This document shows positions 167-4,303 of a DNA stretch of 5,906 nt, piece after piece. The stretch is taken from IMG/VR virus record IMGVR_UViG_2648501392_000003. One strand, given 5' to 3'. The notes under the pieces are model-generated. The model was not told the DNA's origin, made no database searches, and was given only the letters and a program-made list of their open reading frames with translations. Made by a program: the position numbers and the translations under genes. The stretch's first letter is position 1; every line of letters begins with the position of its first letter. The DNA comes from a virus (taxonomy: Duplodnaviria; Heunggongvirae; Uroviricota; Caudoviricetes).

Positions 167-1453
167 TTACCCCACTTTCTTATGGGGCATACATGGGACA
201 CTTTCAGATAGTCTTTTGTTAAGGAGTTCTATCTGTTCGTGATTGTTGTCTTTCATCCATGCTCCGTAAACATTGAATACCATTTGTGCGTTTGTGTGGC
301 CCATCTGGCTTGCGATAAAACTAGGATTAGCTCCAGCGGCAAGTGACCAGCATGCATAAGTATGCCTGGATTGGTACGATTTTCTGTGTCTCAGACCTGC
401 GCGTTTTAAGATACTTGTCCATGACTCCCTGATGGAGTCAACTTTGTAGTGAGGTCCAGACAACAGCTGCTGTTTTATTACCTGAGGGCTAAAAACAAAA
501 GTACATTTATGCACAGCAGTTCTCCCATATTCCCTCTGCTTTACCTCTACAGAATGTTGCTTTCCAAGCATGGTCATTTCCGCTTGGCTTTTAAGAGCAT
601 CAATAGCTGGTTGAACCAGATGAATTGTCCTTCCGGTGCCAGCATCGGTTTTTGGTGGAGTGAATTCGCCAAGTTTTGTATAATTTCTACGGATGGTTAT
701 AGTCCTTGCTTTAAGGTCTATATCTTCCCATGCCAGCGATACCAACTCCCCGTGACGAATACCCGTGTATACAGCGAGAATCCACAGGTTTTTTGTTTGT
801 TGATGACGGCAAGCCTCAATAAAACGAATAAATTCGTCACGGGTGAGAGGATCTGGTTTTACCTTGGACTTTTTTAAGGGAGCCAGACCGTTAAATGGGT
901 TTCCTGAGGTATAACCATTATCTGTTGCAAATTGAAACATTCCAGCTATGGTTGTCATATAGTAGTTTACCGTGACCACTGAGCGCCCTTTTATGGAAGA
1001 AGTCTTTCCATTAGAAAGCTTTTGGTAACCGGTCAACAAATCTCTCCTTACGAAAAGTAAATCCTCTTTTGTTATGGATGAAACCAGTTTTTTTTCACCT
1101 AACATTGGTAACATGTTTTTAATTACTGACTGGTAACGGTTAAGTGCATTCGCACAAATCTCAATTTTCTTAAGGTCCAACCATTTTTCCGAAAGTGCCT
1201 TAACGGTTATCTCTCTTTTTCCCAGACCAAAGTGTTTCAGGTTAGGGGAATTAGGGAACTGCGCGGCGTAGTCGAAACTCCCCATTCTGATTGCAAAACA
1301 AACGGAAGTGCGAAGTTCACCAGCGATCTTCCGGTTTTTGGCTGTGTCAGGAACACCGAGGTTTTCTCTGACACGTTTGCCATTATAGTGAAACCATATA
1401 CGGAGTGATCCTCCATGGTTTTCAACGCCTGTCGGGTATGATGCGTTACTCAT
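167..1453 (-). CDS. int: Phage tyrosine integrase (site-specific recombinase) with N-terminal arm-type DNA-binding domain
   Basis: 428-aa ORF; ATG at 1453 with SD GGGAGG 4 nt upstream. C-terminal catalytic motifs are visible: TGIRHGEL (box I Arg), SRHTYACW (His-x-x-Arg region) and MGHTNAQMVFNVYGAW (His and the catalytic Tyr). N-terminus GSLRIWFHYNGKRVRENLG resembles integrase arm-binding domains. Not lambda Int (different length and sequence). Confidence 0.95.
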   Translation of the reverse strand: MSNASYPTGVENHGGSLRIWFHYNGKRVRENLGVPDTAKNRKIAGELRTSVCFAIRMGSFDYAAQFPNSPNLKHFGLGKREITVKALSEKWLDLKKIEICANALNRYQSVIKNMLPMLGEKKLVSSITKEDLLFVRRDLLTGYQKLSNGKTSSIKGRSVVTVNYYMTTIAGMFQFATDNGYTSGNPFNGLAPLKKSKVKPDPLTRDEFIRFIEACRHQQTKNLWILAVYTGIRHGELVSLAWEDIDLKARTITIRRNYTKLGEFTPPKTDAGTGRTIHLVQPAIDALKSQAEMTMLGKQHSVEVKQREYGRTAVHKCTFVFSPQVIKQQLLSGPHYKVDSIRESWTSILKRAGLRHRKSYQSRHTYACWSLAAGANPSFIASQMGHTNAQMVFNVYGAWMKDNNHEQIELLNKRLSESVPCMPHKKVG

Positions 1454-1486: not shown

Positions 1487-1741
1487 TTAACCGGAACTTG
1501 CATTTTTGGCACCTGGTTGTTTCTGGTTTTCGATCCATCGCATAATTTCTTCGATGTTGTACAGGCATTCACTGTAATGCCCAGGATCACCTTCTACAGC
1601 GTAATGGCGGTATTCTCTTCCCTGCATCCATGACTTTCTTCTGGCCCGCTCGATGGTGCCGGGCTTTAGCCCTGTTGATGCAATAAGGACTCTCTCCGTA
1701 CACCATTTGCTGGGGGTTATCTGATAGATGATTGTCTGCAT
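1487..1741 (-). CDS. xis: Excisionase-like / recombination directionality factor (small winged-helix DNA-binding protein)
   Basis: 84-aa ORF immediately upstream of int on the same strand, with a 33-nt gap. Motifs W..E......GL.P.T..R and GREY resemble lambda Xis-type excisionases. Assignment by position plus motif, not by search. Confidence 0.6.
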   Translation of the reverse strand: MQTIIYQITPSKWCTERVLIASTGLKPGTIERARRKSWMQGREYRHYAVEGDPGHYSECLYNIEEIMRWIENQKQPGAKNASSG

Positions 1742-1759: not shown

Positions 1760-1894
1760 TCATCCACGGCAGTGGAACCACACGTCAAACATTCGTTTCA
1801 CAACTTCACGGCAGTAGAAGCCGTCGACATCACGGGTCAGGTCGTAGCGATTGCCGAATGTCTTGCGAACCCAGAACTCAAAAGCCGTATGCAT
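1760..1894 (-). CDS. Hypothetical small protein, 44 aa (MHTAFEFWVRKTFGNRYDLTRDVDGFYCREVVKRMFDVWFHCRG)
   Basis: Absent from the ORF track (too short). ATG at 1894..1892 preceded by a strong SD (GGAGGTGA, 5-nt spacer), 1 codon after the stop of the 80-aa gene. Stop TGA at 1762..1760, 18 nt before the xis start. Confidence 0.5.
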   Translation of the reverse strand: MHTAFEFWVRKTFGNRYDLTRDVDGFYCREVVKRMFDVWFHCRG

Positions 1895-1897
1895 GTA

Positions 1898-2140
1898 TCA
1901 CCTCCGTTGTATTGCGCGTAATTTTTTCAGGCGCATTTCCTGCTCAGTGCCCGCCAGAATTTTGCGGTACTCCTGTTGGTCAATATGTTCGAACAGGTTG
2001 TTGAACTCACCAATGCGTACCCGTCCGGAGCGCCCGTCCATGCGTCGAAAGAACACTGAGTGCTGAGTACTGCGAGTAATCACCACAGGGTATCCGGCTC
2101 TGTCCGTGTATATCTGACCACGTTGAATCAGAGCGAACAT
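1898..2140 (-). CDS. Hypothetical basic protein, 80 aa, arginine-rich C-terminus
   Basis: Track ORF; ATG at 2140 lies 4 nt after the TAA of the 27-aa peptide gene (TAAAGGAATG), so reinitiation/coupling is plausible, though the SD spacing is poor. No family recognised. Confidence 0.5.
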   Translation of the reverse strand: MFALIQRGQIYTDRAGYPVVITRSTQHSVFFRRMDGRSGRVRIGEFNNLFEHIDQQEYRKILAGTEQEMRLKKLRAIQRR

Positions 2141-2144
2141 TCCT

Positions 2145-2228
2145 TTATCCCCAGCGGAAAAGCGAATACAGAATAAATGCCACCGCTATTGCAACTCCTA
2201 CAGCGGTGAATGCTTCAGGCCAATTCAT
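2145..2228 (-). CDS. Hypothetical 27-aa hydrophobic single-pass membrane peptide (MNWPEAFTAVGVAIAVAFILYSLFRWG)
   Basis: Absent from the ORF track. ATG at 2228..2226 overlaps the TGA of the upstream DUF551 gene (TGATG) and is preceded by GGAGGT with a 6-nt spacer. An 18-residue apolar core is flanked by Trp/Arg. Confidence 0.5.
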   Translation of the reverse strand: MNWPEAFTAVGVAIAVAFILYSLFRWG

Positions 2229-2731
2229 CACTTCACCTCCTGCGGCGGTTCCGGTAGCGGCATCCAGTGGGTTACCTCTTTGAGATACAGGTCTTCGCCA
2301 TCACCGTCATCCCAAGTGGGATTGCCATCATTAAACCAGTCGCCATATACGCCGACCTGAGTGTTGGGGATGTTTGGCGGGTAGTTGTTTTTAAAGTCAG
2401 CCGCTAACACATAGCATTGTCGCTCTCCCATTTCTGGCATTTGCTCACTACAGCTTATCCAACCATCCGGAGTTACCGGAACTGGCGGCGCGGCATATAG
2501 TGGTTTAGGTGATATCTCCGCACGTTTTGCGTATGCTTCAACTGTGTCAGGATTAAACAGGATTATGTTTTCGCCGCATTCCCACGCTATTGGTTTTGCT
2601 TCCAGCGATGCCAGAGCAATTCGTGCCAGTTCTTCCGCTTCTTCTGCTGGCAGTACAACGTTGCTACCAGGTCCGTATGTTTCGCGCCACTGCTTGATTG
2701 TCAGTAGTCGCTCTTTGGTAATAGTGGTCAT
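2228..2731 (-). CDS. DUF551-type phage protein (167 aa)
   Basis: C-terminal HWMPLPEPP motif is characteristic of DUF551 as I recall it. I place the start at the internal ATG 2731..2729 (SD AAGGAGAG, 4-nt spacer), 1 nt after the Ea22-like stop, rather than at the track's upstream ATG at 2893, which lies inside the Ea22-like gene. Confidence 0.75.
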   Translation of the reverse strand: MTTITKERLLTIKQWRETYGPGSNVVLPAEEAEELARIALASLEAKPIAWECGENIILFNPDTVEAYAKRAEISPKPLYAAPPVPVTPDGWISCSEQMPEMGERQCYVLAADFKNNYPPNIPNTQVGVYGDWFNDGNPTWDDGDGEDLYLKEVTHWMPLPEPPQEVK

Positions 2732-2732
2732 A

Positions 2733-3503
2733 TCACTCTCCTTTGATGCAAATGCCAGCGGCGTGCTCGGCTTCACTTTGTTCCCAAAACCACTTGTGAA
2801 GCGCCATAAGCTTTTCGTCAATCGGTGCATATTTGCGATTAAAGTAGGCCTGAGCATCTTTCTCAGATTCGTCCGGCAATTCGCCTGGGCCAAACAGTGT
2901 GTTATAAATCCATGCTAGTCCGCTCTTAGCGTCGCCAGTTGCCTGCCATTCGATAATGGCAGCCTGCATGACCAGAATGTTTTTCCCGATTAACAGGTCC
3001 AGTTCTTTGTACCGGTTGCGGATGTATGCATTCTCGCTTTGTAATTTTGCGTTGCGCTTTTCTGAGGCTTCAAGTAACGCCTGCTTATCGCGTAGCGCTT
3101 CTTCCAGTTCAGCAACATGGCATTCGCTATCAATAAGGTTGTTCTCTGCTGCTTCAAGCTCAACACGCAGCTTCCCTACTGTTAGCGCAATATCCTCGTT
3201 CTCCTGGTCACGGCGTTTGATGTATTGCTGGTTTCTTTCCTGTTCATCCAGCAGTGCCAGCACGGTAGCCGGGTTAGCCTCTGCTATGAATTCAGCGTTT
3301 GCATAAGCCTGAGCATCTGATTCAATCAGGCAGTTAACATGACATTCCGCAATCACGCCACCGGGTTCTCCTTTCCATTTTTGGCAAACAAAAACTCCTG
3401 TTAAATTGCCGTGCTGGTTAACAGATGTATGCCCTACGATGTAGCTTCCTTTAGTTGCTTTCTCTGCCTTTTCACGCAGTGCCTGATAATTAATTTCGCT
3501 CAC
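2733..3503 (-). CDS. Ead/Ea22-like protein with central coiled-coil (256 aa)
   Basis: GTG start at 3503..3501 overlaps the TGA of the upstream gene (GTGA), with SD AGAGGT and a 5-nt spacer. Central region has heptad-like E/K/L/A-rich sequence; the C-terminal LAWIYNTLFGPGELPDESEKDAQAYFNRKYAPIDEKLMALHKWFWEQ resembles lambda Ea22 as I recall it. Longer than lambda Ea22. Confidence 0.75.
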   Translation of the reverse strand: MSEINYQALREKAEKATKGSYIVGHTSVNQHGNLTGVFVCQKWKGEPGGVIAECHVNCLIESDAQAYANAEFIAEANPATVLALLDEQERNQQYIKRRDQENEDIALTVGKLRVELEAAENNLIDSECHVAELEEALRDKQALLEASEKRNAKLQSENAYIRNRYKELDLLIGKNILVMQAAIIEWQATGDAKSGLAWIYNTLFGPGELPDESEKDAQAYFNRKYAPIDEKLMALHKWFWEQSEAEHAAGICIKGE

Positions 3504-3819: not shown

Positions 3820-4035
3820 TCATCGCTCCTTAAAGACGCCGTTTAACATGCCGATCGCCAGACTTAAATGAGTCGGTGTGAATCCCATTAGCGTTACCGT
3901 TTCGCGGTGCTTCTTCAGTACGCTACGGCAAATGTCATCGACGTTTTTATCCGGAAACTGCTGTCTGGCTTTTTTGATTTCAGAATTAGCCTGACGGGCA
4001 ATGCTGCGAAGGGCGTTTTCCTGCTGAGGTGTCAT
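3820..4035 (-). CDS. Hypothetical small protein, 71 aa from ATG 4035 (alternative 93 aa from ATG 4101); possibly lambda orf61-like by position
   Basis: Track ORF 3820..4101. Neither start has a good SD: 4101 sits 10 nt after the orf63-like stop with none, and 4035 has only a weak GGGA at about -13. The extra 22 N-terminal residues (MHFSGSRLHILCAYACRHGTCS) are Cys/His-rich and atypical, so I favour 4035 weakly. Confidence 0.5.
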   Translation of the reverse strand: MTPQQENALRSIARQANSEIKKARQQFPDKNVDDICRSVLKKHRETVTLMGFTPTHLSLAIGMLNGVFKER

Positions 4036-4111
4036 TGAACAAGTCCCATGTCGGCAAGCATAAGCACACAGAATATGAAGCCTGCTGCCAGAAAAATGCA
4101 TTCTGTTGTTG

Positions 4112-4303
4112 TCATGCCGGGTCTCTCTCGTTTGCTTCTGCTTTCGCCGCCATCATTTCCAGCTTTTGTGAAAGGGATGTGGCTAACGTATGAAATTCTT
4201 CGTCTGTTTCTACTGGTATTGGCACAAACCTGACTCCAATTTGAGCGAGGCTATGTGCCATCCCGATACTCGTTCTTAATTCAACAGGAGATGCTTTGTG
4301 CAT
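4112..4303 (-). CDS. orf63: Uncharacterised small phage protein, 63 aa (lambda orf63-like)
   Basis: ATG at 4303 with SD GAGGGG and a 4-nt spacer. Same size and same position relative to exo as lambda orf63; sequence identity not verified. Confidence 0.7.
   Translation of the reverse strand: MHKASPVELRTSIGMAHSLAQIGVRFVPIPVETDEEFHTLATSLSQKLEMMAAKAEANERDPA

Follow-up and report, generated by a model that had tools for sequence, protein, structure and literature searches.

Whether a run of small, tightly packed genes in the early operon of a prophage constitutes one functional system, or several independent genes that lie side by side, is the question raised by this locus. The window, meaning the whole 5,906-nucleotide (nt) stretch of viral DNA analysed (IMG/VR record IMGVR_UViG_2648501392_000003, Caudoviricetes), belongs to a lambdoid, Stx1-phage-like prophage, of which it is the early-left end. 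At positions 1760-2228, between the excisionase gene xis and a DUF551 gene, it carries three small genes with products of 27, 80 and 44 amino acids (aa), in which a preliminary description had seen a single toxin/antitoxin-like or anti-defence/exclusion module and the best candidate for an undescribed system. The reading favoured here, with a probability of roughly 0.55, is that the stretch is the xis-proximal tail of the pL (exo-xis) operon and holds three independent, separately exchangeable accessory genes and not one system. That figure covers the overall picture; the biochemical activities of the products are all ones that we infer, and each single activity is graded lower.

Three small genes and their separate histories

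The features of the stretch on which the argument turns are as follows, given in the order of translation.

2145-2228, minus strand: 27-aa micropeptide open reading frame (ORF), MNWPEAFTAVGVAIAVAFILYSLFRWG; predicted single-pass membrane peptide, the ATG overlapping the stop codon of the DUF551 gene
2236-2241, minus strand: Shine-Dalgarno sequence AGGAGG of the 27-aa ORF, within the 3' end of the DUF551 gene and 7 nt from the ATG
1898-2140, minus strand: gene for the 80-aa DUF4222/RgdR-family protein; predicted barrel at about residues 10-53 and basic C-terminal helix at 55-79, isoelectric point (pI) 11.1
1901-1905, minus strand: Shine-Dalgarno sequence GGAGG of the 44-aa gene, within the 3' end of the 80-aa gene and 6 nt from the ATG
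1760-1894, minus strand: gene for the 44-aa miniprotein (phrog_3871), predicted helix-hairpin-helix; restricted to the Enterobacteriaceae and usually the last gene before xis

The three tiny coupled genes were confirmed as ORFs on the minus strand, with gaps of 3-4 nt or an overlap of 1 nt. The ATG of the peptide (2228-2226) and the TGA of the DUF551 gene (2230-2228) have one base in common, 4 nt lie between the peptide TAA and the start of the 80-aa gene, 3 nt between the TGA of the latter and the start of the 44-aa gene, and 18 nt between the 44-aa gene and the start of xis. A Shine-Dalgarno site is present for each of the three ORFs. The ratio of nonsynonymous to synonymous differences per site (pN/pS, summed Nei-Gojobori) was 0.18 for the 80-aa gene and 0.21 for the 44-aa gene, and that of the 27-aa ORF was 0.41 in its own frame against 1.04 and 1.62 in other frames. 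All three genes are real and each is under purifying selection. RefSeq annotates the 44-aa gene (as hypothetical) and the 80-aa gene (as DUF4222) and leaves the 27-aa ORF without annotation, while a few GenBank submitters label the latter 'hypothetical protein'.

Because each Shine-Dalgarno sequence is situated within the 3' end of the gene before it, and a stop and the next start are separated by 0-4 nt, initiation would be coupled, and the three ORFs would be translated in turn from the polycistronic early transcript of pL. Tight packing and translational coupling do not, however, imply a functional module in phage operons, and the evidence on this point comes from the distribution of the genes. 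The preliminary description had proposed a survey of the genomic contexts of homologues and counted a lack of co-occurrence as evidence against a module. This survey was run and found the genes apart: each of them occurs without the other two.

Among the 163 loci that have both the DUF4222 gene and the 44-aa gene, 33 have no small ORF upstream. Inspection of 13 distinct contexts of those 33 showed that ten are intact without a peptide ORF, the upstream gene ending ~37 nt earlier and the DUF4222 gene having its own Shine-Dalgarno sequence, with the other three truncated, decayed or split. Homologues of the peptide are present without a DUF4222 or 44-aa gene in phages 933W, ArgO145, vB_EcoS-666R9 and Av-05, in all four of which the ATG lies on the stop codon of a gene of Ea22/EaA/DUF551-N type; the peptide seems to travel with Ea22/EaA/DUF551-type genes and not with DUF4222. 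The 44-aa gene is found behind unrelated genes in prophages of Salmonella and E. coli (for products of 109 aa, 119 aa and Cys-rich, 71 aa and Zn-ribbon-like, 157 aa, and 230 aa), beside two different excisionase types and, in Enterobacter, between ninG and Q of the nin region. Both the 44-aa gene and the peptide are missing from 99 loci with short-type DUF4222 genes, the products of which are 33-60% identical to the window protein. The same is true of phage phi24B, where the DUF4222 gene vb_24B_1c abuts xis, and of rgdR, which overlaps the start of a primase gene.

Comparison of alleles leads to the same view. Between loci L088 and L096 the synonymous divergence (dS) is 0.02-0.04 for the 80-aa and 44-aa genes and 1.18 for the peptide gene, whereas between L121 and L138 it is 0.04 for the 44-aa gene and 0.62 for the 80-aa gene. 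Neighbouring alleles recombine independently at gene boundaries, as is typical of lambdoid mosaicism, and independent assortment of this kind is the opposite of the co-variation of a toxin with its antidote. The proposal of one module was also not borne out by searches for known components. PADLOC-DB returned 0 families at E<=1 for the three proteins and the DUF551 neighbour, Pfam returned no toxin/antitoxin domain and NCBIfam no match for the three proteins, and Rfam returned no family at E<=1 in the window. Simple scans of positions 1400-2800, by consensus in the case of promoters, gave no promoter-like or terminator-like site on the coding strand, the only promoter-like match there being at 2698-2725 on the plus strand, outside the cassette. 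There is no sign of a new kind of system; these are ordinary mosaic accessory genes belonging to the exo-xis region.

The position of the genes relative to the integration functions deserves separate mention. Both the DUF4222 and the 44-aa genes strongly favour the last position or positions before xis-int. An integrase gene lies 0.2-1.8 kb downstream in 77 of the 99 distant DUF4222 loci (L183-L281), and in more than half the distance is only ~0.4 kb, roughly room for xis; short-type DUF4222 genes occur beside at least two unrelated excisionase types. Either a favoured insertion point or an excision-linked role could account for this preference. On one viral contig (L131) the cassette is decaying, with the 44-aa gene intact (2256-2393), the peptide ORF internally deleted (MSWPDAFAIYHWG) and the DUF4222 gene frameshifted.

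The prophage setting

All genes of the window lie on the minus strand, in the order int, xis, the 44-aa, 80-aa and 27-aa ORFs, the DUF551 gene, ea22 and further early genes. Beyond ea22 there follow, again on the minus strand, a TraR/DksA zinc-finger gene, a 71/93-aa gene, DUF1382 (orf63-like), DUF1317 (orf60a-like), exo and bet. The neighbours that flank the three genes are listed here.

167-1453, minus strand: int
1487-1741, minus strand: excisionase gene xis of the DUF1233 type (Pfam DUF1233, E 4.8e-30; RefSeq name xisR), with int next downstream
2228-2734, minus strand: DUF551 gene (Pfam DUF551, E 3e-20), the upstream neighbour outside the cassette, its stop codon being the start site of the micropeptide

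Within the exo-xis region the three small genes fall in its variable, non-essential, xis-proximal part, in agreement with the slot that had been assigned to them at the outset. Transcription of the exo-xis region starts from pL, and in lysogens the region is under repression by cI (PMC10789677; PMC8614690). Its deletion alters the expression of genes of the SOS regulon and of phage lytic genes (PMC10789677), and both deletion and over-expression change host and phage gene expression (PMC10789677, PMC8614690). A total of 76 phage records contain the cassette DNA, as do 1316 of the 5426 complete E. coli genomes, about a quarter; a scan of species-representative genomes yielded loci from E. coli and Shigella only.

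Two further observations concern other parts of the window. Positions 1-113 match the end of an IS3-family insertion sequence that is common to nearly all E. coli genomes, and the start of a transposase ORF (MTKNTRFSPEVRQR...), which extends off the window, is at 42 on the minus strand; the element is located just past int, close to the expected end of the prophage. A second hydrophobic ORF of 27 codons, MTTTECIFLAAGFIFCVLMLADMGLVQ, at 4032-4115 on the minus strand, fills a gap that RefSeq treats as intergenic, with the DUF1382 (orf63-like) gene on one side and the 71-aa gene on the other, and has an ATGA overlap at each end. It is at least 92% identical across 175 phage records, lambda-type phages included, and is too invariant for a coding test. 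In lambda, ribosome profiling reportedly revealed additional ORFs for peptides of 7 and 31 aa within this conserved block (PMC8614690).

Candidate activities and rival explanations

The 80-aa protein belongs to the known DUF4222/RgdR family, as a new and distant member. It matches Pfam DUF4222 (PF13973) over profile positions 2-53 of 53 with E 9.3e-16 and 57.6 bits, against a cut-off of 27, and it also matches phrog_285. RgdR (ECs1581), taken from the Sakai genome, reaches 82 bits with the same Pfam model. Nor is the set a wholly undescribed system, for which it had been named the best candidate: one of the products falls in the family of a characterised protein. RgdR (99 aa) is encoded on O-island 51/prophage Sp7 of E. 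coli O157:H7, an element later classed as a phage-inducible chromosomal island (PICI) (PMC3378721, PMC10877973, PMC6092414), and RgdR is encoded by PICIs (PMC6092414). It raises LEE1 expression and type III secretion, lowers motility and binds DNA without sequence specificity (PMC3378721, PMC10877973). An RGD tripeptide at RgdR residues 20-22 has been reported to be important for the activation of type III secretion. More distant short-type members of DUF4222 have PNT at the tripeptide site, so that the RGD motif defines the RgdR subgroup only and not the Pfam family.

Among 1.84 billion representative proteins a profile search recovered only 103 DUF4222 representatives, nearly all of them stand-alone proteins of 40-136 aa. 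The broad alignment of the family was too divergent for a pattern scan and single distant members were used as queries instead. Long multi-repeat matches to the profile (797 and 594 aa) were rejected as unrelated repeat proteins. One representative, P0302 (179 aa), has DUF4222 at its N-terminus together with a primase-helicase zinc-ribbon, and may be a fusion produced by reading through the junction of the overlapping rgdR and primase genes that is seen in PICIs (L008:4305-4604, 4601-6733).

The description of the 80-aa protein as basic and Arg-rich holds, with a pI of 11.1 and Lys or Arg at 8 of the last 26 residues in a lambdoid prophage context. In its AlphaFold model (predicted local distance difference test score, pLDDT, 82) residues 10-53 form a small five-stranded barrel and residues 55-79 a long helix; as modelled, the barrel is Tudor/SH3-like and the C-terminal helix that follows it is basic, and it is predicted to be amphipathic. 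Structural alignments of the model with the Tudor-like domains of CarD and of the UvrD/PcrA C-termini gave 6-9% identity, and a search of PDB sequences with the 80-aa and 44-aa proteins gave no meaningful match. Taken together, RgdR and the predicted fold suggest that the protein most likely binds nucleic acid and/or the transcription machinery. Expression of the operon would then allow it to modulate transcription in host and phage, in the way that RgdR affects LEE1/type III secretion and motility.

The peptide is exactly 27 codons long, with the same start and stop, in alleles that are only ~50% identical in protein, e.g. MSWPDAIVTLGVVFAAAFVVFSICRWG and MTWPEALTTVGIAMAVALVVYSICRWG. The alleles differ by conservative, hydrophobic substitutions and have invariant ends (M-x-W-P-[DE]-A ... 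[CF]-R-W-G). Mean hydropathy is 1.1-1.6 with ~19 consecutive hydrophobic residues, in keeping with the hydrophobic character noticed earlier. The product is predicted to insert in the inner membrane with a single pass, for which the positive-inside rule suggests N-out, C-in, and it would probably act on a membrane target. No match at a meaningful E-value was obtained in Pfam, NCBIfam or PHROG, and a literature search with the peptide sequence found nothing.

Conservation of the peptide reaches from Stx phages, 933W among them, to a virulent phage. The 933W homologue, MTWPEAFANVGTVMAVVLVVYSICRWR, also has 27 aa (NC_000924 58829-58912, minus strand; locus L179:1501-1584) and is without annotation in the RefSeq record; its start falls on the ST933Wp77 stop codon, and the ORF is just upstream of the hokW/sokW locus. 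In Av-05, a virulent member of the Vequintavirinae with a genome of 121 kb, a peptide 70% identical (locus L180:1501-1584) immediately follows a gene whose product is, in its N-terminal 45 residues, closely similar to the N-terminus of the window DUF551 protein (MSILTKERLLTIKQWRETYGLGSNVVLPAEEA...). A fusion of DUF551 and peptide, hinted at by a common protein cluster, was rejected: the DUF551 proteins of 121 aa do not include the peptide, and the cluster is an artefact.

The 44-aa protein matches phrog_3871 (E 1.5e-31) and no Pfam, NCBIfam or PADLOC model. All 49 cluster representatives are from the Enterobacteriaceae, with the conserved pattern F-E-x-W-V...G-x-R-Y-D-L-T-R-D-x-D-G-x-Y-C-R-E-V-V-K-R-M-F-E-V-W. 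Its model (pLDDT 88.5) has a helix, a hairpin-like loop and a second helix, from which a soluble helix-hairpin-helix miniprotein is predicted, usually encoded directly before xis. A metal-binding role for its Cys and His residues was rejected since the C-terminal Cys/His are variable and only one Cys is nearly invariant. A literature search with the 44-aa sequence found nothing; the protein and the peptide both belong to small uncharacterised enterobacterial phage families. In the nin region of Enterobacter prophages (L017:2909-3004, L018:2909-3004) an unrelated hydrophobic ORF of 31 aa, MSIETIYCIGYVALIATLAIGDFLYSRMDSR, stands before the 44/48-aa homologue and overlaps it by ATGA, which is a second case of a hydrophobic micro-ORF directly 5' of the 44-aa family.

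A number of observations weigh against the reading of three independent genes, or against the activity it attributes to the 80-aa protein. The latter is 37% identical to RgdR over 27 residues (BLASTP E 0.009) and ~20% identical overall. Its R7-G8-Q9 aligns with the RGD of RgdR, Arg and Gly being kept and Asp replaced by Gln, and it has no counterpart of the 13-residue N-terminal extension of RgdR and has Thr at RgdR Lys35; with these differences an RgdR-like activity is not assured. In the close E. coli subgroup, moreover, the 80-aa and 44-aa genes are adjacent at nearly all of the 163 loci that have both, the gap being mostly an identical 3 nt, even between alleles with dS near 1, and the adjacency holds with or without the peptide and across deep allele divergence, with the Shine-Dalgarno sequence of the second gene inside the first. 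This would fit a facultative pairing in which the two proteins work together, for instance as regulator and modulator, with the peptide optional. Such a two-gene unit is nevertheless considered unlikely. The 44-aa gene also stands behind at least five unrelated genes in Salmonella and E. coli prophages and in the Enterobacter nin region, and is absent at the 99 distant DUF4222 loci, in phi24B and at RgdR; the two genes are separated by 675 nt at locus L145, and the L121-L138 comparison shows their alleles being exchanged independently. Homologous recombination between syntenic prophages, which preserves gene order, explains the adjacency equally well and needs no functional link.

A toxin/antitoxin system, either with the 27-aa peptide as a type I-like membrane toxin or with the basic protein and the miniprotein as a type II-like prophage-stabilising pair, is highly improbable. 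The genes do not co-occur outside close relatives, their alleles assort independently, and neither Pfam nor PADLOC gave a toxin/antitoxin domain; no antisense RNA family and no promoter- or terminator-like site on the coding strand was found, a weak negative given the simple scans. The peptide is in addition translationally coupled to the gene upstream, in an operon on which cI acts as repressor in lysogens (PMC10789677); a free-standing, constitutively expressed unit would be the opposite. It is easier, if still unlikely, to see one or more of the genes as a stand-alone moron-type superinfection-exclusion or anti-defence factor, the membrane peptide and the 44-aa protein being the most plausible candidates. 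Each of the three genes is small, mobile, non-essential and expressed early, within a variable region, neither of the two candidates has an annotated relative, and the presence of the peptide in Av-05 suggests that it is useful outside lysogeny; on the other side, no similarity to PADLOC models, no defence island among the contexts examined and no relevant literature for the sequences were found. That the 27-aa ORF is a mere coupling or leader element, setting downstream expression through a functionless peptide, has the geometry in its favour, with the start overlapping the upstream stop, the stop 4 nt before the next start, and the ORF at 4032-4115 bridging two genes likewise. It is made very improbable by the purifying selection on the amino acids of the peptide in its own frame only, by the conserved ends and constant length of 27 residues retained at ~50% identity, and by 933W, ArgO145 and 666R9, which have no annotated same-strand gene start within ~100 nt downstream.

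The reading of three independent accessory genes can be extended, somewhat speculatively, to the proposal that DUF4222 proteins (RgdR, vb_24B_1c and the 80-aa protein) are mini CarD-like factors, the barrel docking on RNA polymerase and the basic helix contacting DNA, and that the 27-aa peptide is a functional membrane-acting phage micropeptide. This combination is doubtful, but were it true it would account for the unexplained pleiotropic and sequence-non-specific effects of RgdR on virulence and motility genes. The predicted Tudor-like barrel and basic helix in any case offer a concrete and testable idea of how the RgdR family may act. It also follows from the survey that a paralogue of RgdR is present in the early operon of Stx-type prophages of about a quarter of complete E. 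coli genomes. The model phage phi24B too has a DUF4222 gene, within the exo-xis region whose removal has unexplained effects on gene expression. Finally, a conserved gene for a 27-aa membrane peptide is absent from RefSeq annotation, that of 933W included, yet is under codon-level selection.

Comparison with known systems

The slot between ea22 and xis is occupied in lambda by orf55 and ea8.5, which like the three window genes are small, non-essential and expressed early from pL. The view that none of the three resembles a lambda gene was upheld as regards ea8.5 and orf55, to which there is no relation: homology to orf55 was rejected at an hhalign probability of 0.2% for both the 44-aa and the DUF4222 profiles, and no Pfam match is common to the cassette proteins and lambda ea8.5/orf55.

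Type I toxin peptides such as Hok are like the 27-aa peptide in size and in having a single hydrophobic helix. TisB, Ibs and Ldr are further type I toxin peptides, and AcrZ, MgrB and KdpF are bacterial small membrane proteins, similar in size and helix. The window peptide differs from the type I toxins in that simple scans found neither an antisense RNA nor a separate transcription unit for it, and in being translationally coupled inside an operon. As regards type II systems, neither co-inheritance with co-variation of alleles nor a known toxin or antitoxin fold or family was found.

For the 80-aa protein the closest characterised relative is RgdR. Both are above the curated threshold of PF13973, small, very basic (pI 10.1 for RgdR, 11.1 for the 80-aa protein) and located on an E. 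coli mobile element, and they have in common an Arg-Gly where the first strand begins, together with the aligned pattern IY.D..G..V.I....V.Y.R. The C-terminal helix is different, that of the 80-aa protein having E-x-E-Q-x-x-H/R-L-K-K-L-R, which is conserved in the short subfamily. The contexts also differ: the 80-aa gene is in the pL operon beside xis in a lambdoid prophage, whereas rgdR overlaps the start of a primase gene in a PICI. Activation of LEE1/type III secretion, repression of motility and DNA binding are known for RgdR only.

A nearer match in position is vb_24B_1c of the Stx phage phi24B, a short-type DUF4222 protein of 83 aa and ~35% identical to the 80-aa protein, for which no gene-specific experiment was found in the literature searched. 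Its gene belongs to the same position class, the last pL genes before xis in the exo-xis region, and differs in abutting xis with neither the 44-aa gene nor the peptide.

In structural terms the closest known systems are the Tudor-like domains of CarD and of the UvrD/PcrA C-termini and the KOW domains of NusG/Spt5, and the model of the 80-aa protein has the five-stranded Tudor/SH3-like barrel of the CarD and UvrD/PcrA domains. In the C-terminal domains of UvrD/PcrA and in CarD it is this Tudor-like barrel that docks on RNA polymerase. Structure entry 7egs shows the UvrD Tudor-like domain docked in this manner.

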